Positions 1-20,000 of a DNA stretch of 20,000 nt are shown here, in pieces; the first letter of the stretch is position 1; every line of letters begins with the position of its first letter. The position numbers and the translations under genes were made by a program. The notes beneath the pieces were generated by a model, which was given only the letters and a program-made list of their open reading frames with translations, was not told the origin of the DNA and searched no databases. Source of the DNA: Proteromonas lacertae (lineage: Eukaryota); assembly GCA_002245135.1 (NCBI GenBank), contig NGBS01000889.1:120908-140907 (forward strand). Direction: 5' to 3'.

Positions 1-3000
1 AGTTACAGATTCAGATAATAAATATTCTATTAATGGTAAGATTCTTCGAGATGGAGATGTGGATGAGTGAATTCTATTTAAATATTATATAACAAAACAA
101 TATATATATATATATATATACATTTTATCATCACATATATTTGAATCTTCTTGGCGAATTGAAAAAATAGTAACATTATGTTCTTCTATTTCACTTTTAT
201 GACTTTCTATTATTTCTCTATTACAATTACTAATTATTATTTCATAATCAGTATTGTTTATCATCTCACTTAACTTTTCACTATTATCTAAACAATATCG
301 AACTGACAATTGAAGTGAATTTCCTTTAAATCCTCCATTTGAATTTATATATATTTCATATTGTTTTAGAATGTAATAGATTCGATCATCTTTATCATCT
401 TCATTTAACCAAATTCCTACTCTTGTATTAGAACTTTTTATTAATTCATCACTTACTGTAAAATCGTTTTTATATTCATCATCATCTTCACGAAATACCA
501 TTGAATATTGATTTTGTAATCTAAAACCATTTCGAGGTAATAATATTATTTCATATTCATTATTTATATAATGATTCAAGAAAATCTTTATTCCAATTAA
601 ATTATTACTTTCAATCGAATTGTAGCCTATTGGCAAATCATATTTATTTCGATATAACTCTTTTAGTATTGATTCACTCTTTTCATCATTTATCAATGGC
701 ATAACTGAATTTAAAATTGATAATGAATTAAACATTGCATAACTTATCTCATTACACATTTCATTTGATTTCCCAGAATTAGAATCTATAAATTCCATCC
801 AAGCAAAATTAGATCCACTATCTAAAAGATTTGAATAACTGGAAATAAAATAAACATCATTGAATCGATTATTATCTCCTTTGTTACAATCTATTATGTT
901 TTCTACTATATCTAGAATTATTACTTTATAATTCTTTCGATTCATATCATTCTCATTCATTAAATCTAAAAATTCAATTATATTATCATTTATTATGGTA
1001 TATATTGACACTTTACTGTAATTACAGTGAATTTCATTTATTGTTTCATTTATACTCTCATAACTAGTATTCTTTAATTCAATTTCTACACAGGTTATGG
1101 ATTTTATTATTTCTGAACTCTTCTTTACATTGGAACTGATTAATCTACTTGAATTAGTATCTAAATGGATTATTACACAATTTTCACTTTCTTGAGAAAA
1201 ATAACCTAATAATAAATCACTGTAATGGTTGGGAATTCGATTTAATGTCACTATATTCTTATAACATTCTTCACCTTCTCCTGGATTAACTACAAATAAT
1301 AGTTTATCTCCTCTTATCAAATATTTATTCATTATTTCTCTTTCTTCATTTCTGAAATTGATATTAAAGAAATTATTCTAATATATTAATTATATATATT
1401 TTAAAAAAAGATATGATTCACTTCCAAAAAAGGCAACAATTGCACTATCATTATAATAACGATCCATATAATTAGTTAATTCAGATAAACTTCGGATTAT
1501 TGGTCTTCGAGGTATTATTCGATGATTATTTATTCCACCATGTAATCGGTTTGTTGCAGCTGTCATTCCATAAAAATATTGACTGTAGAAATCGTCATAT
1601 AAATCATCATATTTTGTTGATATTCTTATATAAACAGCAATATAATAGGATTGCTTTATTTCTTTACCATTACACCAATCACATTTTCGATATATATCTG
1701 AAAAACTCATACTTTGATCAATATAGATAGATTTTGATTCTAATTCAGCTGTTCCATTTTTTATTATACCAATAAATAAATAACTTTCTAAATATCCTTC
1801 ATTATTCCAACTGATTCTTCCTCCTGCACTTTCACTTATTGAATGTTCAATTGATTCTTTAAATGATTTAAAATCCACTTGACCTATCAGATTGATTGTT
1901 TCAACAAATAGTTTTATTATTGAATAACTTAAAGACATTGTCGAGGTTAATATTGGTTCATCACTAAATACTTTTAAAGATTCTTTCAAAGATTTACTAC
2001 TCTCACTTTCATAACTATTTATATAGCTATTCATTATTATTGCATTTTCAAAGATCTCTTTTTCATAATGATTAACTATTATTTCATCTAAACTTAAACT
2101 CAACACTGGATAATCTACACTATTCATTGTTATTGTTTCATTATATTTATAGAAAAACCAATAGTTATATTCTCTTTCTATTACACTTATTATCAAACAA
2201 TTGCCTTTACAATATGTACCAATCTGAGAAACTGCATCATAAGCACTTGTTGCACTTACATCTTTCATTTCATAACTTCCTTTATAGTTTAAATTCTTTT
2301 CACCTTTTATAAATGAAGAAATTATCTCATAGCTTTTGACTGAAGACTTCTCACTTGAATATAATATAAAAACATTCTGATGTTTCTTTAATAAATTTTG
2401 ATAACTTCGAGTTATTAGATTATAAGTCATTGGTTGACTGTATAATACATTTCCATTACAATTATCACCACTTACACTTCCTAAATGTAAAAAGGGAAAT
2501 TTATATTTTTCACTTACTATCTCTTCCAATTTACCATATTCTAGTGTATTTACTATACAGATTATATTATATTCTTTCAGCTTTGAATCAATCTCAGATT
2601 GGATGATTGATGATTCTTTTGATCCATCAAAGTATATGGATATCAATGATTTTCCAAGAATTGAAGATTTCGAGTAATATTCATCTATACTTATCTCTAA
2701 ACTGTCTAATGTATAACCATCAAAGTAGCTTAAATCACCTTTAGTATTACTTATTATACCAATAAAATAGGTTTCATCACTTAAATAATTATCAGATTTT
2801 ATTAAATTACAATATTTATTGGATGGAAATCCATTCACTTGACTACTTGGTACATTGAATGGAACTTTTATTACTTCTTTTATTACCATATCACCACTAT
2901 CTACATAACCGATTTTTATATTTCCTATTAATCGATGATTGGATAATAACGATATTGATAAATTACTGATAATTTCATATTTCTGATTATAGAAATTGAA

Positions 3001-3951
3001 TCGAGTTTGTTCATAATCAAGTTTATTGTTGATTCTTTGGCTTGATAATATTTTCAATATTGTATATAGAATAACTTGTTCATCAGAATATGGAGTTGGT
3101 GGAGGTGGTGTAGTTGTTGGAACTGTTGAGGTTGGATCTACTGTTGTTGATGGAGTGTTTAAATCATTACTCATTTCAGTTGTATCAACTAATAACATAT
3201 TAGCTATCATATTCTCTTTACTTATTGGATTATAATCCTTAAATTCATTTATTGGGATTGAAAAAGTTATCATCTCAAAATTTGGATTACTTGTAAACAG
3301 ACTTTCAAATTCAGTAATAACAGTAGCATCTCCAATGCTATTATAAATAATTACACTTTCTTTTATTTCTTTTAGTTTTGTAAAGAAATCAGTTATATCA
3401 CTACTACTTGGATTTTCTTTTATCAAACAATATGACACATCATTTCCATAATATGTTAAATAATCTCTTAAACTCTCAACACAAGTCTTATCAAACTCAT
3501 TTTTATATCCCAATATTATATTATGTCTGTAACGATGTTTGTAATGATTAACTACGAAAAATCGAGTATAACAACTATCAAAACCATAAACAACATTTGA
3601 GAGACAAGTAGATAACGGATGATTCACTATATTAAATATATATACTTCATTTTCTACAGCAATTTGATTAAGTTCATCAGGCATAATTACATTTATTCCA
3701 ATAGAAGCAAAGATGATTTTAATACCCTTTTCTTTTACTTGTTTAACATTATCTAAAATATTATTTTTATCAATATTATCTACTTTCACATCCACTTCAT
3801 AAGTGTTTGAATATTTACTACCAAATTTGGTTATCACTTCTTTTAAATCACTAGCTGATGAAGAAGTAGTTGTAAGAACAGCTATATCTTCACCCAAGGC
3901 AATATAAAAAGAACTTAATAACAATACAATATTAAATAATGTGTAACGCAT
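1..3951 (-). CDS. Giant secreted/surface protein with tandem UrtA/AmiC-like periplasmic-binding (PBP type 1) domains, copy A; 3' part runs off the window
   Basis: ATG at 3951 in aatttcaaaATG context, then signal-peptide-like MRYTLFNIVLLLSSFYIALG. Proposed exons are 3951-1415, 1351-122 and 73-<1, which join the 853-aa and 415-aa ORFs in frame. Nearly identical to copy B, and intact at the site of copy B's first frameshift. Confidence 0.85.
74..121 (-). other. 48-nt GT-AG intron with (TA)10, copy A intron 2
   Basis: GTATATATA...TTTAAATAG. Removal gives SNICDDKIIHSSTSPSRRILPLIEYL, which aligns with GQECSYNVFYTGAIPNQFIDPIVTYL in another repeat. Confidence 0.85.
1352..1414 (-). other. 63-nt putative U12-type AT-AG intron, copy A intron 1
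   Basis: Identical to 12986-13048: ATATCTTTT 5' end, TTTCTTTAAT branch-point-like motif and TTTCAG 3' end. Removal deletes the stop and keeps the frame. Confidence 0.75.
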
Positions 3952-4087: not shown

Positions 4088-5851
4088 CTAATGAAATGAA
4101 TAATGTTTATTATAATAATTACTATTGTGATGATGATGATGAAAATTATTAGAATTTTGTGATTTTAAAGATTTATTGTTATTCTCATCTTCTTTTAATG
4201 CTTTCTTTCTTCTTCTATCTTCTTCATATTCTTCTCTAACTGTTCTCAACAACTTTTCATCAATTCTCTTACCCTAAGTGATAGATTATAAATTAATTGA
4301 AATACTCGAAATAAACTCGGTATTTGTTCTATATCTTGAAATGTACATTGATTATCCATTAGCCATTCCAATTGTTCAATATGATGAATCAAATAATCAT
4401 GTATTTCTGGAGTTAATTCTTTAATTGATTCCTTATACTATTAAATATATATATATATACAGTAATATATTATACACCCAAACTAACCCATTTCATTGTT
4501 TCATCAATAGTGACAGTAACACAATTTTCAGTAATCAATCTATTTTAAATATAATATTATATATATACGTTGAATAAGGTTTTTTATCAGGTAATATTTT
4601 TATACATCTACTAACTTCCCTAAAATATTCATTATTTAATATATCATTATAAACACATCTCAATCTATCAGCAATATCATTTTCTTTCTGTATAGATGGA
4701 GGACAAACGAACTTAATATTTGGTTTAACCATATCAATACTATAACAAGTATATATATATATATATATATATACTTTTTTCTTATATTACCTTCACTTTG
4801 TCTTTCTTCTTTACTAATATCTACATTATTAACACGTCTGTGATGAGTAACAATTTCACTGTAGAACTCCAACGTATCTTCTAATCTTTCAGCCCAATGA
4901 ACTCTTTTCTTTTGTTTCTTTGGTGATTCTTCTTCTTTCTTATTCGGCTTTGATATTGAAGGAAGTGATATTGGTTGTTTTTCTTCTACTTTCTCTGTTG
5001 ATGCTACTGGTGATGGAATGCTATTATTATTATTATTTAGTATTTGTAATGATTGGACAATTAATGGATTTATTATATTATTTTCATTATTTTCATTATC
5101 ATTTTCAACTCTTTGTTTTTTATTCATTTCATTATTTTCTATTTCATTGTTATTATTATTATCTTCAATTTTTCTTTTAGTTGGTTTGCTATTATCATCA
5201 TTTGATTCTTTTGAAATTTTAATCCATTTATTTTTAATTTTTAATGCTAAATTCTTGTATGGACTATTATCATCACTGTATATTGATTTAATTATAACTT
5301 TTAAATCTTTGGCCTGCTTTATTTGTTCTTTTGTAACAGTTAAACTTTCACATACTTTAAGTATTTTTTTGATTAATCTTTTATTATTCGTTTCTTGAAA
5401 ATGCTTTAACCAATTACCTAATTCTTTTAAAAGATTTAATTTTAGCATTTCATCAACTATTTCAGAGCTTGTCATTGGTAGGCTATTCAATAATAATTCT
5501 ATTTGTGAGTGTGTCTAAAACATTACTAACGATTAAGTATACCAATTTAGATTGAAACATTTTAATTGCTGATTCAGCATTTATATATTTTGTATCATCC
5601 ATGGTGCACTGCAAATAGGCTTCCTGAAATTCAAAATTTGATAATTCTGGTATAAAACTACGAAACATCTACATATATATATAAACTTGACTATACATCA
5701 TATTCCTTTCTGTTGTTTTTTCTCAGTAAATACGGTTGAAAAAACTAGAGATTAACAAAAAATTATATACATCATGTAGCTCAGCTAATTGCCTAACATA
5801 TTTACATAGTGTATATGACAAAAGAGTATTATAACTGTCTTGAAAATCCAT
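4088..5851 (-). CDS. PNUTS/PPP1R10-like protein: TFIIS N-terminal (TND) domain plus PP1-docking RVxW motif
   Basis: Hand-spliced from ATG 5851 with seven GT-AG introns: 5770-5745, 5696-5669, 5542-5515, 4774-4740, 4568-4540, 4475(or 4487)-4438 and 4305-4274. Ends at TAG 4090-4088. TND-like segment LGNWLKHF...IKKILKVCESLTVTKEQIK...LALKIKNKW is followed by KKQKKRVHWAERLEDTLEF. Confidence 0.75.
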
Positions 5852-6288: not shown

Positions 6289-7773
6289 TCAAATACAAAA
6301 TGAATCTGGATTGATTGAAGTACGATTGATTGAAGGAATAGTTAATAAATCATCCTCAACATATAGATTCAATGATGATTGTAACAATGAATCATTATTA
6401 TTAACCATACTTATAGGAGCACATATATCCATACTAACATAAGGCAAACTAAAAACCGTAGGAGCTTGAATAAATCCAATCACATTCCTTTGATTATCAC
6501 TATTCAAATAATTTGCAACTAATGTTGGTTTTATTCTTTTAATTGGTTTGTTTTGTATTGCACAATGTTTATTAACACATTTATTATAAGTAGCAGGGAT
6601 AGTCCATCTATAATATAATCTAATAACATTATTATGATATGGTAAAGTGTTTAATAAATTATCGAAATTACTCAATTCTTTAGCGTTTTCATTCATTATT
6701 GTAAATACATAACCATTCAATCTATTCCATTTCTTTAACAAGTGATTAGTTACTGTTGATATTGGTTTATTACTTCCACATGTAATTTCTAATAGAGGAT
6801 TATATAGACATTGTTCCATATAAGTTGAGGTTTGATTGTCAAATGGAATTAATTGAATTGTAGCTCTAAAACATACAGATGAAGCTGTTGTATTTCCTTC
6901 TATTTGTTGTTGTTGTTGTTGTTGTTGTGATGGTAATTGTGATATTGGTTGATTAGTTTGTTTTTGTGAAGATTCACTTACTGTTGGTATAATGAATGAA
7001 ACGATATCATTCTGTATAAAAGCATGTGACGTATTGTTCTGTTTACTATTATCCTTTCTGTTTCTTGTTATTGTATTAGTGTTATTAGTTTTTTGTTGTA
7101 TTAATGAGGTGGATTGTAGTGAAGCTTTACAATATTTCATTTTCTTTATCAATGCTTTTGAAAAGAATTTAGGATTCATATATCTCTTATTATTTGGTTT
7201 GACTGATTTTAATACATTATAGTAGCTCAATATTGCACGATGAATATACTATTAGATACATATAAGATAATATGATTTATACATTTTTCTCTTTTATTCT
7301 CAATTCTTCTGATATACATCCGTATTTTTGTAGCATTGTTGTGATCTTTGTAACCAGTCTGTAATAAAACTGTCTGACCTGATCTTTACTTCTTGAATTC
7401 ATATTTATGCTTATAGCTTGAAAATCTTTATAATATTTCTTATATAAGTCGAAGAACTTAAATATTTCTGTTCTTGACCAATTATTTGTCTCTATTTCAC
7501 TTTTAGAAGTAATATTCTTCTCAATCATGGCTTCACTACTAACAATAACTTTAGCTGAGTTTTTTGTATGAAATATATCATTCATTCTTTCATCGGGGGA
7601 AACTAAATCGCAAGTGTCGAGAATTGAAGAAGGTGATTTAGAGAGAACTATATTCATTATAATATAACATTGATACAGTCATTATATATAGATTTATCAT
7701 TACCATTTGATTGTTTAGGACTTGATGGTTGTGATTGGTAGGAATTGAGTTGGTTTTCTTCTAAAAAATCCAT
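6289..7773 (-). CDS. SANT/Myb-domain protein of the CRAMP1 (cramped) / TSL-kinase-interacting protein 1 family
   Basis: ATG 7773; introns 7676-7648 and 7282-7249 join the ORFs in frame. SANT-like WSRTEIFKFFDLYKKYYKDFQAI...SKDQVRQFYYRL, and a second family block IQLIPFD...NPLLEITCGSNKPISTVTNHLLKKW. Confidence 0.8.
6904..6927 (-). repeat. (CAA)8 coding microsatellite, poly-Gln
   Basis: TTG x8 on the + strand; QQQQQQQQ in the ORF. Confidence 0.9.
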
Positions 7774-8507: not shown

Positions 8508-10320
8508 ATGAGTGACTCAGATGATGTATTTGAAGAATCGTCCGATTCAGATGATAAACCAACAAGAAGCAAAAAACGTACTAGCAACTTAACAAACAAC
8601 ACCAGAAGGTATAATTGGTGTTAATTAACATGTTGATAGGAAAAAAGCAAAGTTTGTTTTATTATCTTATTTATATTTACTAAAAATAGGAGATATGATA
8701 GTGAAGATGAAGAAGATGATGATGATCTCAACCATGAGCTTAAAATATACGAAGAGACAGAGAATAAAAATAAACAAAGAGAAAAACAACGATTGAAGCA
8801 AAAATACAAGCAAAATATGGGAGAGTATTAGTTATTAGTTATAATTATGTAGAAATGATTATGAATCTGATCAAAACGAATCAGATGATGACATGGATGA
8901 TATATATCTTTCACACAACACAACAACAACAACAGCAACCACTAAAAGAAACGAAGAAAAGAAACAAACAAATGAAATGAAAAAAGAGGTAAAAACAAAG
9001 CAAGAAGACCCACCAATAACATTAGATGAATTGAACAAATGTCGTATACCTCGTACATACCTTGAACAATGGTTATATGAACCATATTTTGATAAAGTAG
9101 TTACAAATGCATTTGTTAGATTATCAATTGGAACAGTTAAAGATACTGTATTTGATAGAAATTATTATATATATAGGGTGAAACAAAGTATAGGCTGTGT
9201 ATTGTTGAGAATGTCTCTAGAAATTACAATAGATCATATCGTTTAGGTAATAGAACTACAAATGTTGTATATTTTAATATATATATATATTCATTCATAT
9301 AGGGTTTATTATTAAGTTATGGTGATGCTAAAAGAGTATGGAGTATGGATAAGATTAGTAACAGTCGTATAACACAAACTGAATATGACAAATGGATTAA
9401 AATGATGAGAGAATGTAAATTACATATAATGACATCATCAGTATATATATTCTATTATTATTAATATTATATAATAGGAAGCAAGAGAAAAAGCTAAATC
9501 AATTATTCATACTATCAAAAACACAGTTCATAGTGCAGAAGTAGTCAATGAAATGGTTAAACAAATACAATCCAACGTATTTATATATATATTATCATTT
9601 ATTAGTTTGCAAATGTAAGTAATTTAGCTAGTAAAAGAGATGAATTAGTTGCACTTTATAATACAGCCAAATTAGAAGGAAATGCAGCTCAAGAAGAACA
9701 TATTCAGAGTCTATTAGATGAATTAGATGTATAAACATTGTTATTATTATTATGATAAAATAGAGTGAAGCTAAAAGAAGAAAGAAGAATGAATATAATA
9801 GACTTACTCAAGGAAGTTTATTGAAACAAATCAATGAAAAGCAACAGAAATCAAACAAAGAAACGTTAAGAAGACACCAAGAAGAGATGGAAAAGAGAGG
9901 TGAAGATATACATGATCCTTCAGGTAGAATTGACACTATTCCAACTAATATTTGGGCTGTTTCTATTAATAAAGATGAAGAGGAAGAAAAGAAGGAGGAA
10001 GAAGACAAAGCTAAAGTATTAATTCAATATATATATTTATTTATATATTTAGAAAGTTGAATTACCTGATTTGAATAAAAATGATACTCCTCCTCCTCAA
10101 CAACTTGTTGTATCTCCAACTAAAGCTGCAAATGACGATAATATTGTTATTGATATTCCCTCTATTTCTCCAATAAATTCTGCTAATAGAACTGCTCCAA
10201 TTCAGAGATTGATTGAACCACCTAAACTTCAAGGAAAAGTATGTTTATATTATTATATTGTATTAGAAAATGGGCTTAGAAGAATATAAAAAACTTAAAT
10301 TACAAAAAAATAAAACTTAA
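8508..10320 (+). CDS. RTF1: RTF1-like Paf1-complex-associated protein (Plus3 domain)
   Basis: ATG 8508; ten GT-AG introns: 8609-8639, 8652-8689, 8825-8852, 9148-9176, 9267-9302, 9441-9477, 9577-9605, 9729-9763, 10016-10052 and 10239-10266. TAA ends at 10320. Plus3 motifs LDELNKCRIPRTYLEQWLYEPYFDKVVTNAFVRLSIG, YRLCIV, YRLGNRTT and MDKISNSRITQTEYDKW; C-terminal MGLEEYKK. Confidence 0.9.
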
Positions 10321-10448: not shown

Positions 10449-13400
10449 ATGCGTTTTAATATTTTTGGTTTATTAGAAGCTTTACTTTTACTCAATATCG
10501 TAGTATGTGATAAAGTAGCTATATTAACAACTGATACAAATTCTAAAACTGGTTTAGAAGAAGTGATAACCAAATTTGGTAGTAAATATTCAAACACTTA
10601 TGAAGTGGATGTGAAAGTAGATAATATTGATAAAAATAATATTTTAGATAATGTTAAACAAGTAAAAGAAAAGGGTATTAAAATCATCTTTGCTTCTATT
10701 GGAATAAATGTAATTATGCCTGATGAACTTAATCAAATTGCTGTAGAAAATGAAGTATATATATTTAATATAGTGAATCATCCGTTATCTACTTGTCTCT
10801 CAAATGTTGTTTATGGTTTTGATAGTTGTTATACTCGATTTTTCGTAGTTAATCATTACAAACATCGTTACAGACATAATATAATATTGGGATATAAAAA
10901 TGAGTTTGATAAGACTTGTGTTGAGAGTTTAAGAGATTATTTAACATATTATGGAAATGATGTGTCATATTGTTTGGTAAAAGAAAATCCAAGTAGTAGT
11001 GATATAACTGATTTCTTTACAAAACTAAAAGAAATAAAAGAAAGTGTAATTATTTATAATAGCATTGGAGATGCTACTGTTATTACTGAATTTGAAAGTC
11101 TGTTTACAAGTAATCCAAATTTTGAGATGATAACTTTTTCAATCCCAATAAATGAATTTAAGGATTATAATCCAATAAGTAAAGAGAATATGATAGCTAA
11201 TATGTTATTAGTTGATACAACTGAAATGAGTAATGATTTAAACACTCCATCAACAACAGTAGATCCAACCTCAACAGTTCCAACAACTACACCACCTCCA
11301 CCAACTCCATATTCTGATGAACAAGTTATTCTATATACAATATTGAAAATATTATCAAGCCAAAGAATCAACAATAAACTTGATTATGAACAAACTCGAT
11401 TCAATTTCTATAATCAGAAATATGAAATTATCAGTAATTTATCAATATCGTTATTATCCAATCATCGATTAATAGGAAATATAAAAATCGGTTATGTAGA
11501 TAGTGGTGATATGGTAATAAAAGAAGTAATAAAAGTTCCATTCAATGTACCAAGTAGTCAAGTGAATGGATTTCCATCCAATAAATATTGTAATTTAATA
11601 AAATCTGATAATTATTTAAGTGATGAAACCTATTTTATTGGTATAATAAGTAATACTAAAGGTGATTTAAGCTACTTTGATGGTTATACATTAGACAGTT
11701 TAGAGATAAGTATAGATGAATATTACTCGAAATCTTCAATTCTTGGAAAATCATTGATATCCATATACTTTGATGGATCAAAAGAATCATCAATCATCCA
11801 ATCTGAGATTGATTCAAAGCTGAAAGAATATAATATAATCTGTATAGTAAATACACTAGAATATGGTAAATTGGAAGAGATAGTAAGTGAAAAATATAAA
11901 TTTCCCTTTTTACATTTAGGAAGTGTAAGTGGTGATAATTGTAATGGAAATGTATTATACAGTCAACCAATGACTTATAATCTAATAACTCGAAGTTATC
12001 AAAATTTATTAAAGAAACATCAGAATGTTTTTATATTATATTCAAGTGAGAAGTCTTCAGTCAAAAGCTATGAGATAATTTCTTCATTTATAAAAGGTGA
12101 AAAGAATTTAAACTATAAAGGAAGTTATGAAATGAAAGATGTAAGTGAGACAAGTGGAAATAATGCTATCGACGAAATAAATACATATTGTAAAGGCAAT
12201 TGTTTGATAATAAGTGTAATAGAAAGAGAATATAATTACTGGTTTTTCTATAAATATAATGAAACAATAACAATGAATAGTGTAGATTATCCAGTGTTGA
12301 GTTTAAGTTTAGATGAAATAATAGTTAATCATTATGAAAAAGAGATCTTTGAAAATGCAATAATAATGAATAGCTATATAAATAGTTATGAAAGTGAGAG
12401 TAGTAAATCTTTGAAAGAATCTTTAAAAGTATTTAGTGATGAACCAATATTAACCTCGACAATGTCTTTAAGTTATTCAATAATAAAACTATTTGTTGAA
12501 ACAATCAATCTGATAGGTCAAGTGGATTTTAAATCATTTAAAGAATCACTTGAACATTCAATAAGTGAAAGTGCAGGAGGAAGAATCAGTTGGAATAATG
12601 AAGGATATTTAGAAAGTTATTTATTTATTGGTATAATAAAAAATGGAACAGCTGAATTAGAATCAAAATCTATCTATATTGATCAAAGTATGAGTTTTTC
12701 AGATATATATCGAAAATGTGATTGGTGTAATGGTAAAGAAATAAAGCAATCCTATTATATTGCTGTTTATATAAGAATATCAACAAAATATGATGATTTA
12801 TATGACGATTTCTACAGTCAATATTTTTATGGAATGACAGCTGCAACAAACCGATTACATGGTGGAATAAATAATCATCGAATAATACCTCGAAGACCAA
12901 TAATCCGAAGTTTATCTGAATTAACTAATTATATGGATCGTTATTATAATGATAGTGCAATTGTTGCCTTTTTTGGAAGTGAATCATATCTTTTTTTAAA
13001 ATATATATAATTAATATATTAGAATAATTTCTTTAATATCAATTTCAGAAATGAAGAAAGAGAAATAATGAATAAATATTTGATAAGAGGAGATAAACTA
13101 TTATTTGTAGTTAATCCAGGAGAAGGTGAAGAATGTTATAAGAATATAGTGACATTAAATCGAATTCCCAACCATTACAGTGATTTATTATTAGGTTATT
13201 TTTCTCAAGAAAGTGAAAATTGTGTAATAATCCATTTAGATACTAATTCAAGTAGATTAATCAGTTCCAATGTAAAGAAGAGTTCAGAAATAATAAAATC
13301 CATAACCTGTGTAGAAATTGAATTAAAGAATACTAGTTATGAGAGTATAAATGAAACAATAAATGAAATTCACTGTAATTACAGTAAAGTGTCAATATAT

Positions 13401-16400
13401 ACCATAATAAATGATAATATAATTGAATTTTTAGATTTAATGAATGAGAATGATATGAATCGAAAGAATTATAAAGTAATAATTCTAGATATAGTAGAAA
13501 ACATAATAGATTGTAACAAAGGAGATAATAATCGATTCAATGATGTTTATTTTATTTCCAGTTATTCAAATCTTTTAGATAGTGGATCTAATTTTGCTTG
13601 GATGGAATTTATAGATTCTAATTCTGGGAAATCAAATGAAATGTGTAATGAGATAAGTTATGCAATGTTTAATTCATTATCAATTTTAAATTCAGTTATG
13701 CCATTGATAAATGATGAAAAGGAGTGAATCAATACTAAAAGAGTTATATCGAAATAAATATGATTTGCCAATAGGCTACAATTCGATTGAAAGTAATAAT
13801 TTAATTGGAATAAAGATTTTCTTGAATCATTATATAAATAATGAATATGAAATAATATTATTACCTCGAAATGGTTTTAGATTACAAAATCAATATTCAA
13901 TGGTATTTCGTGAAGATGATGATGAATATAAAAACGATTTTACAGTAAGTGATAAATTAATAAAAAGTTCTAATACAAGAGTAGGAATTTGGTTAAATGA
14001 AGATGATAAAGATGATCGAATCTATTACATTCTAAAACAATATGAAATATATATAAATTCAAATGGAGGATTTAAAGGAAATTCACTTCAATTGTCAGTT
14101 CGATATTGTTTAGATAATAGTGAAAAGTTAAGTGAGATGATAAACAATACTGATTATGAAATAATAATTAGTAATTGTAATAGAGAAATAATAGAAAGTC
14201 ATAAAAGTGAAATAGAAGAACATAATGTTACTATTTTTTCAATTCGCCAAGAAGATTCAAATATATGTGATGATAAAATGTATATATATATATATATATA
14301 TATTGTTTTGTTATATAATATTTAAATAGAATTCACTCATCCACATCTCCATCTCGAAGAATCTTACCATTAATAGAATATTTATTATCTGAATCTGTAA
14401 CTAAGATAATCTTGATTTATCCAATTGGTTTTGAAGAAACATCTGATTATGAATTATTAAATAGTTCAATAAATGCATTAGGAGCGATAATCTCAAAAGA
14501 ATATAAAGTAAATGAAACAGATATAGAAAATATAAAATCAAAAGTATCATCTGCAATTTCTTCAGTAAGAAAATACTTAAATGATGGTGGTATAATATTT
14601 AATTTCTTAGAAAGTGAAACAAGTAATATAATGTATGAAAAACTATTCAATATAATGAGTTATTTAAATCATAAAGAATATGAAAACAGTTTAGAAATCT
14701 CATCTAAATATCGAATAGTATCAAGAAAAATCGAAAATTTCAAGAAAGTTGATAAAAAATATCGAGAAGGTCATTATTGTGAGAGTTTATGTTATTTATC
14801 TGATGATAGTTTAATAAGTGAATTGAGAATGTCAACCTTTGGAAATGATAGTGTATTATCTGAAAGTGAATCAATTGGAATAGCCACAATCGAATATATA
14901 ATAAATGGTTTAAAATCTGATATAAACTCAATTAATATATTGGAATATCTTCAATCTAATTCAATAAGTACATCTTTTGGAAAAATCTCAATCGGATCTG
15001 ATAATTATGTAAATTTCCCAATGTCACTATTAACTAGTAAAGATGGTAAAATGGTAGAAAAAGTGATATTATATAAGAAATGGGATAGTGATACTTATCG
15101 TAGTAATTTTAATGAAATACTATCAAATCGAAAAGAATGTGATATAAAGAATAATAATAATAATAACAATAAAAACAAAATAGTAATATCATTAGTATTA
15201 TTATATCCAAGTACTGGTTCATTTGCTTATCGTGGAGTGGATTTAATATCTAGTTATTTATCAACAATTGAATATTTAAACAAAGAAGAAAGTGGAAGTG
15301 GTTTATACTATAATCCAATAATATATGATAGTGGAGGTGATGTTGAAAGTATACGAAGATTTATTCATGAGATAAAATCTAAATATAAAACATTATTTGT
15401 CTTTGGTCTTTATGGTGATGAATTAAAAGATCAATTTTTGACTGATTTCGAAGAAGAAGGTTTAATATTATTTTATCCAACAGATTATGATGGTGATGAT
15501 TGTAATAAGAATGTATTTTATACTGGAATTCCATTTCCAACAAAATATCCAGTAATATCTTGGATAGATTCTCATTTAGGTAAGACAATCTATGTAGTAT
15601 ATTCCGAAGGTGTAAGTTATAAAGAAATGGCAAATCAAGTAAATATGTGGTATAAAGAAAGAGGAATAAATGTGATAAGACTATTTCAAATTCCAATGAT
15701 AAACTATAAAATGGAAGATATAGTTTCAACAATCACTAATGAGTTAAGTTCCGGTGTGATAATCTCCTTATTAGATGGTAAAGCAGCAACTGATTTTTTG
15801 ATTGAAATGGATGAGAAAGGACATAAATATCCAACCTACAAGATAGTGAATTTCTTTATAAGATCAGTTGATTCTATAGCTATATCAAATCGTATAAATG
15901 GTCATTACATGTGTTTCAGTCATACAGATATAATAACTGAATTATATAAACCTGGAGATAAACTAACAGAAATATTTCAAACCACTTTTGCTCATTATAC
16001 AACCGATGCCGAATTGTTACCAAGTGCAATAATATCGATTTTACTAGTTGATAATACTCTCAAATCATTAAATCTAAAAGTAGATGAAAATAATGCAAAT
16101 ACTATTCCTTATAGTTTTAATGATGTATTAGACAAACTGCATGAAGGAAATAGTATAAGTTATTTCCCTAAGATTCATACTGGTGTAAATCATCATGTTA
16201 GTTATTCATTTAGTTTGTATGAAATGTCATCTGATTCTACTAATGGTTATAATACAAAATCTGTTCTTAGTATAACAAGTGAATCAACAGCAAATGAATA
16301 TAACAGTCATTATTTAAGTGAAGGAATATATCAATGTGATTGGATTCGAAATAATGAAAGTGGTAAAATAAGTGAAGAATATGTATTGGTTGGTTTGTTG

Positions 16401-19400
16401 ATTTCAATAAGTGGAAGTACAAGTGAATTAGAATATACAGCAATTGATCCAATAGTTGGTGGAATAAAATCAATAAATGAGAATGGTGGATTAAATGGTT
16501 GTTTTGTTGATTATAAGATATTTGATACAGGAAGTAAATCTGAATTGGATGTAATAAAAGAAGCAATAAAGAATCCAAAGATAGTGACATTTATTGGTTG
16601 TTATTTGAACAAATGTAGAACAACTGTATCAAAATTCTTATTAGAATATGATAAATTATTGTGGTATCCAACAATATTTCAAGGCCAAGAATGTTCTTAT
16701 AATGTATTTTACACCGGAGCAATACCAAATCAATTTATTGATCCAATAGTGACATATTTAGCATCAACTGTAGATGATTATTCAAAATCTCTATATTTTC
16801 TTGGTTATACTGGTGAATTTAGTGATGATATATTTAGAGTATTATCATTTAAATTGTCAGGTAGTTATGAAGTTCAAACATATTATGTAAATGATTTATC
16901 TCAACAGAATGATGTTTCAAAAACTATTACTCAAAATTATTTAGGTGGAACTATTATTACTACACTACCCGATATAGAATTAGCATCATTTTTAGAATAT
17001 TTTGATCAATATGTGATTGATGGATCTGTGTTTAGATATATATGTTTAAATGCTGATAGGTCAATAATGAAATTAACTTCTCACACTGCTTCATATGAAC
17101 TATTGTTAGTTGGTTCATATTTTGATGAAATGAATCCTGATTCTAAATTCCATAATGAAATATATGAATATACAGGAAGAACAAGTCATACAATGTATGG
17201 TGATTCAGTTTATATAGCATTACAGTTTTGGTCTAAAGCTGTGAATGCATCTCATAGTTTTAATGAATTAGATTATATTCCACATATGTATTTATCAACA
17301 GTTGAAAGTGGAAGTGGAAAAGTAGAAATGAATAACAACCATTATACATCATTATTTTTCTATATAGCAAGATGGAAAAGGAATAGTGAAGAGATGGAAA
17401 TAGTATCTTCTCAATCTGTTACTCAAACTCCAATGGCATGGAATTGGGATATAGAAAGTACACATGGTTATATATGTAATTATAATGATAGTTCAATAGG
17501 TGAAAAGAAACAGATAAAAGCATTAGATGTTTTACTTGTAATATCTAACAGTGGTGGAAGTAGATCTTTATATACTGGTTTACAAACAATAATTAATTTA
17601 GCAATGAATGAAGTGACTGAAAAATATAAAGGAGGATTATTAAATCGAGAATTCTTTCTTACAGTGGTTGATGATGAATCAGATAATGACATCTGTGTAG
17701 ATAAAGTGAAAGAAACGCTTAAAACCTTAAATCCAGATGTGATATTTACTACTTCAACTTCTGATTGTGTTAAATCATTTTTTGCCTTCAATGGCTCATC
17801 TTGCTATTCCGTTATTCCGAATAAACTATGCAGGAGGAGAATTATGTGAAGAAAATGTGTTTATATCAAGTAAAGAACCAAGTGTGCTTGATCGAATAGT
17901 GGATATTTATTATGATATCAATGATGAATCTAAATGTAATTTCCATATAATTGGAACAACTGATGCTTATAGTAAAAAGGCAGTTGAATATTTAACAAAA
18001 TATTTAGAATTTAAATCTGCTACTTTGTTATTATCTAAAACAGTTGATCCAGGTTTAACTGATTTTAATGAAATTATGAATGATATAGTTGAATCTTCTC
18101 CAAATGGTGGAACAATAATCTTTTTTGGAAGTAAAGAGAATCATCTTGGTTTATCAAAAGCATTTTCTGATAATAATGTTGATTTATCAAAGATTCATTT
18201 GATTAGTTATACAACAGGTGAAAATATGATAGGAACAAATGTGAATGAATTTTATTCTTCTCAAGCTTTCTTCAGTGCTTTAGAAACCAGTAAAAGTAAA
18301 GAATTTGTTTCAAAAGTAAAAGCATATACAAGTGATCCAATCTCTGAATTAATGGAATCTACATATGTGATATTTAATATTTGGGCTGAAGCAGTAGAAG
18401 AAGCAGGAAGTACAAATCTAAGTATGATAAATAAATACATTTATAATCGAGAATTTGATTCTCCTGAAGGAAAAGTGAGTTTAAAGCCAAGTAATTACTT
18501 ATCTCATTTCTTATCATTTGCATTATTTAAAGACAATAAATTTACAATTGAATATACTTCTAGTTCTGAGATAGTTCCTGTTGTTTATAAGAAGTTTGTA
18601 AATGATGGAACATATCTTTGTGATTTTGCTGATAAAACAATTGGATCTCATCATAAAGATCAAACAGTGACAATAGGAGTAATAAATTCTTTGACAGGAA
18701 CATTCAGTGTAACTGAAAGAGCTTTATCTGATGGAATAATATTAGCAGCAAATGAAATAAATACAAATGGTGGAGTGTTGGGAAGAAAAATCTTATTAGA
18801 AGTGAGAGATCCTGAATCGAATTTAGAAAAATATGTAAGTCAATCTAAAGATTTGTGTCGATTAGATGAAGTAGTAGCTGTATTTGGTAATGGAAGATAT
18901 AAGAATCTAATGAATATGTATAAGACATTTGAGCAATATAAAAAGCCTTATTTTTATCCAGGAGTAACAGCAACCGAAGTATGTAGTGGTTATACTTTTG
19001 TAAGTCAATCCACAACAAGTCAAATAGTTCGATCATTTGAAAAATATGTTTATCCATATTATAAATCATTCATATTAGTGATGGATATAAGTAATTCATT
19101 TTCTGTAGTTCTTTGTAAAGCCACAATTCCAAGTATTGAAAGAATAAATGGGAAGATATATGGACCATATAATTATACTGATTTAGATCCATTATACAAT
19201 TTAGGAATGGAAATAATCAGTAAAAGTGCAATAATTCATGTATCTGGAGCAGATGCCGAGAATCCAATATATACTTATTACTGTTCTCATGGAATAACAG
19301 GTAAAACAGCTCATATTTATAGTGCAACATTAGATTCTCGAATAGTGTCATCACTTGATTTTAGTTGTATGGCTGGAGTATCAGTAGTAACAACATTTAT

Positions 19401-20000
19401 TCAAGAAATGGGTGATGCAAGTTCTGATTCATTAACTTATCTAGCAGCTGCAGAGACATTTGTAACAGCAGTGAAGAATAGTTTTGGAAATAAAGTGATA
19501 ATCTCAGCTGCAATGGAAGCTGCTTATACAGCTGTGAAACTATGGGCAGATGTAGTAACAAACACTTATTCCTTTGATACTGAATCTCTTCGATCTACAA
19601 TATATGGTTATACATATGATAGTCCAACTGGTTTATTGGAAATGAATACTAATGGAATAGCCAATCGAATCATGTTTTTAGCTGAAGTGACTGAAGAAGG
19701 TAAATTTCGAATAACTGAATCTGCTTCAAAACCAGTTCAATCTGAAGCATATGATCAATTAATAGAAGGAAATGCAGGATATACATGTGATTGGACAGAT
19801 AAAGGAGATTATTATTTATTAAAGAATATGAAAGTAATATTTATTCATGAAGAGAAGAATCGAGAGAGAGAATTGATATTACAGAATTATGAATCTTATA
19901 TGATTCAAGATATAAACTATAACAAACTGAATGGTTATTTTATAATTCCAGTGTTTATATATGGTAGTAATGCTGAAGAATTCCATGAGAGATTAAGTCC
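10449..20000 (+). CDS. Giant secreted/surface protein with >=9 tandem UrtA/AmiC-like PBP1 domains, copy B; two +1 frameshifts; open at window end
   Basis: ATG 10449 with signal-peptide-like MRFNIFGLLEALLLLNIVVC. Introns 12986-13048 and 14280-14329; frame changes at 13721-13722 and 17778-17783. The frame from 17785 has no stop through 20000 (translated by hand; absent from the ORF track). UrtA-like motifs: TIGVINSLTGTFSVTE...EINTNGGVLGRKI...VVAVFG, LLWYPTIFQGQECSYNVFYTGAIPNQ and GYTCDW. Confidence 0.85.
12986..13048 (+). other. 63-nt putative U12-type AT-AG intron, copy B intron 1
   Basis: 5' ATATCTTTT; TTTCTTTAAT at 13028-13037 with its adenines 12-13 nt from the AG; 3' TTTCAG. Spliced AFFGSESNEEREIMNKYLIRGDKLLF aligns without gaps to TFIGCYLNKCRTTVSKFLLEYDKLLW in repeat 6. 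Confidence 0.75.
14280..14329 (+). other. 50-nt GT-AG intron with (TA)11, copy B intron 2
   Basis: Removal joins the 13711 ORF in frame to the 14412 ORF (AT|A = Ile). Confidence 0.85.

Follow-up and report, generated by a model that had tools for sequence, protein, structure and literature searches.

A gene of Proteromonas lacertae is interrupted by a 63-nt AT-AG segment that we predict, with high confidence, to be a U12-type (minor) intron at this donor. We consider it probable, at a lower grade of confidence, that this minor intron was gained in the third repeat of a UrtA-like probable surface receptor after the repeats had multiplied. The gene lies in a 20,000-nt stretch of contig NGBS01000889.1 (the window) that has a GC content of about 26%; the accessible part of the genome paper gives 27% for P. 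lacertae (PMC12129017). The gene runs off the window in the ninth of its Peripla_BP_5/UrtA-like repeats, of which the first eight are complete, and its 5' part is present a second time in inverted orientation. The features are as follows.

10449..12985, plus strand: exon 1, with a hydrophobic, signal-peptide-like N-terminus, repeats 1-2 and the start of repeat 3.
12750..13974, plus strand: repeat 3 (Peripla_BP_5/UrtA-like domain), which alone among the repeats contains this intron.
12986..13048, plus strand: predicted U12-type intron, AT-AG, 63 nt, phase 2; joint-top in-frame cut, with intron-less homologues.
12986..12995, plus strand: minor-type donor ATATCTTTTT, a 7/8 match to RTATCCTT; YLF read-through common to four homologue clusters.
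13029..13037, plus strand: branch-site-like TTCTTTAAT; the likely branch A is 13036, 12 nt before the 3' end.
13046..13048, plus strand: acceptor CAG, with an alternative AA acceptor at 13041-13042.
13049..14279, plus strand: exon 2, with a mid-domain start.
14280..14329, plus strand: predicted major GT-AG intron, 50 nt, which is 2 nt shorter in the inverted copy.
14330..20000, plus strand: exon 3, with the rest of repeat 4, repeats 5-8 and the start of repeat 9.
1..3951, minus strand: inverted second copy of the 5' part of the gene, 99.3% identical over 1-3850, with another N-terminus.
1352..1414, minus strand: identical copy of the 63-nt intron, by letter comparison with the plus copy.

The segments 1-3850 (minus) and 10550-14402 (plus) stand head to head as near-identical copies whose N-termini differ and between which a 34-nt patch at 12148-12181 has diverged, a pattern that gene conversion between older paralogues would produce. 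Given 99.3% identity over 3.85 kb, we count the two copies as one observation of the intron. The plus copy has two further frame breaks, one extra base near 13721 that is absent from the inverted copy and a second break in a T run at 17788-17793; these could reflect either decay or assembly error.

Read-through of 12986-13048 reaches an in-frame TAA and the segment is letter-identical in both copies, in agreement with the in-frame TAA that the initial annotation had described in each. We scored 2561 in-frame, stop-free cuts with a profile of five intron-less homologues. The AT-AG cut at 12986-13048 comes joint first (100.7 bits), its sole tie being its own 1-nt slide, which yields the same protein product. 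This supports the exact junction proposed earlier (12985/13049), which the five homologue clusters cross gap-free, and the claim that removal of the 63 nt keeps the frame and aligns gap-free with sister repeats is borne out and extends to the five homologues. The 44- and 70-nt GT-AG cuts from 12979, said to lose the frame, are indeed not among the in-frame cuts. The two GT-AG cuts that do stay in frame and had been put forward as alternative junctions, 12963-13022 and 12979-13056, fare poorly, with 83.9 and 82.1 bits; 83.9 bits is the best in-frame GT-AG score, approximately 17 below the AT-AG cut, and the best GT-AG cut with an assumed indel rescue reaches 92.4 bits. The possibility that a separate gene begins downstream is argued against by exon 2, which starts in mid-domain, at Pfam profile position 90.

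The AT-AG termini are those of the best-scoring cut, and the 3' end is the part on which another minor-type solution has to be weighed. If the U12-type donor and branch site are kept and the 3' end is placed at the AA at 13042, the result is a 57-nt AT-AA intron and a product with two residues added. This cut is in frame, its AA lies 6 nt from the branch A as in rows of the Blastocystis ST1 intron table, and AT-AA is a known minor subtype. However, it scores 94.2 bits, that is, 6.5 below the AT-AG cut, and it needs a two-residue insertion that is absent from 5/5 intron-less homologues; we regard it as unlikely.

The splice signals favour the U12-type character claimed initially. The donor ATATCTTT matches RTATCCTT at seven of eight positions, and RTATCYTT at a fixed site has a probability of p=1.8e-4 given the composition of the window's introns. 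The branch-site-like TTCTTTAAT (7/9 match to a TTCCTTAAC-like branch site) stops 11 nt short of the 3' end. Of 100,000 shuffled versions of the intron interior, 1.4% contain a branch-like motif, as do 0/19 predicted major introns of the window. These 19 are homology-free predictions, with two placed by eye and three doubtful calls excluded. All have the form GT...TAG, and 17 of them start GTAT. Eighteen are 26-38 nt long and the remaining one, at 14280-14329 in the candidate intron's own gene, is 50 nt. The candidate had been described as longer than the 26-38-nt major introns nearby: at 63 nt it does exceed all 19, but the range has to be widened for the 50-nt intron. In the first part of the published annotation, judged by eye, most P. 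lacertae introns are 24-46 nt (PMC12129017).

Homologues carry the argument for the donor further. We searched exon 1 against 50%-identity representatives and obtained 46 proteins, the close ones being Logan proteins; the many homologue clusters on numerous contigs indicate that relatives are common in public runs. Intron presence in these protein sequences was judged from the frame stop, and the intron's first base in them may be A or G. Ten lineages cover the site, the window included. Five (P0004, P0009, P0015, P0018 and P0019) are continuous through it, reading G-x-x-T and then N-[EN]-[EQN]-R, and because their C-termini look like intron read-through we take them as genomic. The other five (the window, P0002, P0003, P0011 and P0016) stop just past the site with YLF. 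P0002 is 80% identical to the window protein, while P0003, P0011 and P0016 are 31-34% identical to it and 37-41% to each other. Read-through of major type is found at the repeat-3 site in none of the five interrupted lineages. In the P0011 cluster one member out of 12 has YHF instead, one change away from a CTY codon and three from TTA, and this favours a TATCT donor; the tail of P0002 ends FFNI, like the branch region in the window, a likeness that is suggestive only.

In U12-type introns a long conserved donor (ten bases) is expected alongside a diverged interior. None of the 19 predicted major introns reads through as YLF (their donor matrix gives p=0.014 for each), and at a control site near residue 698 four homologues read YNY, YIL, FLL and YNK, with boundaries set by eye. 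The retention of YLF by distant homologues and its absence from the 19 major introns make a constrained U12-type donor likely. Word-index searches gave no homologues for repeats 5-6 among the longer proteins and none for exon 2 or for the Plus-3 piece of a neighbouring RTF1-like gene, and homologous DNA loci amounted to short, weak matches (L001, L002-L003), with none among viral contigs.

A real intron could also be a non-canonical AT-AG one spliced by the major spliceosome, in a host that may lack the minor machinery. The start GTAT in 17/19 window major donors is near the candidate donor, and an Rfam scan of the window gave 0 matches, thus no snRNA, both of which accord with such splicing. 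Against it stand the conservation of the donor to position +10 across proteins of 30-41% identity, the U12-like branch motif with no counterpart in the 19 major introns, the terminal CAG in place of TAG, and the length. We hold splicing by the major machinery to be quite unlikely. For U11/U12-25K, Table S5 of Lind 2025, in its accessible part, lists two copies in P. lacertae and none in Cafeteria (PMC12129017).

In the initial annotation AT-AG termini were called a rare subtype, which does not hold for the most relevant comparisons. In the part of the Blastocystis ST1 table available to us, at least 336 intron rows start ATATCC (Gentekaki 2017, PMC5608401), and among the first 30 of them 11 end in AG, 17 in AC, one in AT and one in AA. 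At least three rows start ATATCT, one of them of the form ATATCTTT...AG; at donor position +6 the window intron has T, which counts against it, since the ST1/ST4/ST7 table has T there in at least three rows and C in at least 336 (PMC5608401). In Physarum, AT-AG is the commonest non-canonical minor type, at 29%, according to the accessible text (bioRxiv 10.1101/2020.10.12.336362). The termini of the window intron are thus unremarkable for such lineages.

The likeness to Blastocystis ST1, in the rows examined, goes beyond the termini: there too minor introns have an AT-initial donor, frequent AT-AG ends, a length above that of the major introns of about 30 nt, and a CTTAAC/CTTCAC-like branch site that resembles the motif in the window. 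In contrast, the window motifs ATATCTTT and TTCTTTAAT are AT-shifted, the intron measures 63 nt against 37-53 nt, and the branch-to-end distance is 12 nt against about 5-9 nt. For the window intron, unlike those of ST1, presence and absence across repeats and homologues also locate the gain. Physarum polycephalum, as far as the available text goes, provides an rtatctt donor variant, common AT-AG ends, a T-shifted branch site and lineage-specific gain (bioRxiv 10.1101/2020.10.12.336362), although there the expansion of minor introns is genome-wide and here a single intron is at issue. Neither the Physarum-type terminal inverted repeat (rtatctt...aagATAT) nor a TA duplication is found at the intron ends and flanks, so the transposon route proposed for Physarum is unsupported for the window intron.

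The history of the site can be followed across repeats and relatives, as the initial annotation had proposed to survey it. The site is uninterrupted in every other repeat of the window, in nine repeats of P0007, in repeat 1 of 8/8 spanning homologues and in repeat 2 of 6/6, the last count leaving out three homologues that start just after the site (residues 484-487); in repeat 3 the lineages split evenly, as above. Because the intron is absent from the other repeats examined, repeat 3 likely acquired it after the repeats' expansion, and the earlier claim that one of at least nine UrtA-like repeats is interrupted stands. On both trees two intron changes suffice. The smaller tree places the intron-bearing rows together with P0009 on one side of a branch (weak support, 63/40), and the AU test does not reject a constraint that groups the intron-bearing rows alone (p=0.082). 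The simplest reading would be a single gain followed by a loss in P0009, though the absence in P0004, P0015 and P0019 may be loss instead. Being common to proteins that are 31-34% identical, the intron is old within the family. Of the gain after transfer and repeat expansion that was first suggested, the confinement to repeat 3 is upheld; the gain is not a recent one.

Elsewhere in the family, frames end near residue 424 in P0008, P0012, P0030 and P0115, near residue 627 in P0005, P0006 and P0036, and near residue 698 in P0001, P0010, P0014 and P0020, while the window gene is continuous at all three places. These shared stops suggest loss or gain of major introns during the history of the family, and from such patchy sites intron turnover in the family would appear to be high.

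The domain itself is closest to UrtA (best family match, E 4e-64; best structure PDB 8hic, E 1e-32), although the best score, 216.7 bits, misses the UrtA cut-off of TIGR03407 (492.75), and an atlas search with the window gene returns the general binding-protein family. ANF_receptor has no match in the window proteins. The repeat domain is of prokaryote type. The bacterial ancestry ascribed to the gene is borne out as similarity to UrtA and goes no further: in a tree of the repeats with 18 prokaryote-looking domains, branches are long and the repeats receive no supported placement, and P0007 (3745 aa), a Logan protein, is a class C GPCR with nine tandem UrtA-like domains and a 7tm_3 domain. Since a class C GPCR carries nine such repeats, any transfer may be old. 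P0007 adds 7tm_3 to repeats like those of the window gene, which suggests a receptor role for the window gene and an architecture shared beyond its own lineage; a cell-surface receptor is the probable prediction. We found no description in the open-access literature of a class C GPCR whose 7TM domain is joined to nine UrtA-like domains. EhVFT, a protist PBP-like surface protein for which a lateral origin has been suggested, has its domain family in common with the window gene. The window gene differs from known family members in its at least nine tandem, strongly diverged copies, its cysteine-bearing linkers and its score far below the UrtA cut-off. In the accessible tables of Lind 2025, Proteromonas lacertae has 182 IPR028082 proteins, Cafeteria six and each of eight Blastocystis strains 0-1 (PMC12129017). 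A Proteromonas-like stramenopile fits the window best on these numbers, on U11/U12-25K and on GC content, and the count of 0-1 speaks against Blastocystis as the host. Among rumen ciliates, also considered as hosts, E. caudatum is reported to have lost most of its ancestral introns, and minor snRNAs are lacking in the ciliates surveyed.

These family data bear on the idea of an ancient intron that came down from an old eukaryotic Venus-flytrap receptor and disappeared from other repeats and relatives, with no gain after transfer. The same repeat architecture in P0007, from another source, the six IPR028082 proteins of Cafeteria, the patchy presence of the intron across the family and the typically old age of minor introns (PMC10639083, in the text available) could all be accommodated by it. 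However, an ancient origin needs loss from seven other full repeats, from P0007 and from all homologues spanning the site in repeats 1-2, and the window repeats match Peripla_BP_5/UrtA without an ANF_receptor match; we judge it decidedly unlikely. Least probable is a site with no AT-AG intron at all, where a GT-AG intron would be combined with an indel from assembly, or a broken gene would end at the TAA: the two other frame breaks of the plus copy, one of them in a homopolymer run, and the GTGAAT at 12979, which resembles a major donor, are outweighed by the deficit of 8-17 bits or more of every GT-AG cut, with or without an assumed indel, and by the four other lineages whose frames end there with identical read-through residues.

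For a minor intron gained in repeat 3, we envisage ATATCTTT as the pairing partner of U11 and TTCTTTAAT as that of U12, the C-to-T changes being tolerated as G-U pairs or met by altered snRNAs, as reported for Physarum. Branching would take place at A13036, followed by cleavage at the AG 12 nt further on. A single gain in repeat 3, early in the radiation of the family, would have been followed by long retention of the donor and by loss of the intron in at least one relative (P0009).

How such an intron came into being can be narrowed to two routes. The proposal of a de novo U12 gain is supported in its U12-type character and its restriction to repeat 3; direct creation is indistinguishable from conversion of a major intron at the same site. 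Conversion via minor-like introns has been discussed (PMC11347168, in the portion available), and few point changes separate the GTAT major donors of the window from the minor donor. On the other side, the interrupted lineages offer no relative of the window gene with a major-type read-through at the site (0/5). We regard major-to-minor conversion of an AT-rich intron as slightly more likely than direct creation because 17/19 major donors of the window already start GTAT. The first 37 nt of the intron (12986-13022) end in TATTAG, as a typical major intron of the window does; a splice at 13022 would shift the frame, and the TATTAG may be left over from a shorter ancestor or have come about by chance.

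Larue and Roy 2023, in the accessible text, describe Physarum as an extremely rare case of minor-intron gain, with very little de novo evidence from other lineages; for the minor introns of Blastocystis they count recent gain among the possible explanations (PMC10639083). Eighteen of the 29 ST1 genes marked as supported transfers in the available part of Lind Table S6 (PMC12129017) were looked up in the ST1 intron table. Twelve of them have intron rows, and among the 66 of 69 rows examined (one N-masked) none is annotated as starting with AT. Two long rows given as GT-AG, OAO14775_1 and OAO16379_11, each contain a 38-nt AT-AC U12-like segment (PMC5608401). Both segments start ATATCCTT, hold a CCTT(A/C)AC branch motif and end in AC. 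Once the 38 nt are removed from OAO14775_1 (glycosyl transferase), a 225-nt open frame is left, by eye, with what we take to be a DxD-like glycosyltransferase motif; OAO16379_11 lies in a fused gene. Both introns are apparently mis-annotated. The OAO14775 transfer is dated to the human-Blastocystis branch in the same Table S6 (PMC12129017). Two of 66 rows is compatible with a genome-wide minor share of about 1% (346 of approximately 35,000), at small numbers.

From these cases we propose, at somewhat short of an even chance, that minor introns are still being created in Opalinata (Proteromonas and Blastocystis), at about their genome-wide share and even in bacterial-derived genes, which would make this group the second such lineage after Physarum; GTAT-type major donors in AT-rich genomes would be the feedstock. 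If this is true, the repeat-3 intron and the introns of OAO14775 and OAO16379 are datable gains. Restriction to a single repeat of a prokaryote-type domain means that an intron postdates that repeat, so its gain can be placed on a tree. The open-access literature available to us yielded no paper that treats minor introns in Proteromonas or in transferred genes. Carriers and non-carriers of the repeat-3 intron are already present in public assemblies, so that minor-intron gain outside Physarum would be directly testable in this lineage, and with the repeat-3 intron and the two hidden Blastocystis introns in hand, the idea of recent gain in this lineage can be put to a concrete test across the genome. 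Genes with such introns would be split or mis-modelled by gene finders that allow GT-AG and AT-AC alone.

Three other genes lie in the window. An RTF1-like gene (8508-10320, plus strand) encodes 494 aa with a Plus-3 domain and has 10 predicted major introns of 28-38 nt. A Myb/SANT gene (6290-7773, minus strand) has a weak Cramped-like C-terminal lead from an atlas search, and a gene at 4300-5851 (minus strand), which is presumably PNUTS-like, has a PP1-binding-like RVHW motif and a long exon without a Pfam match.
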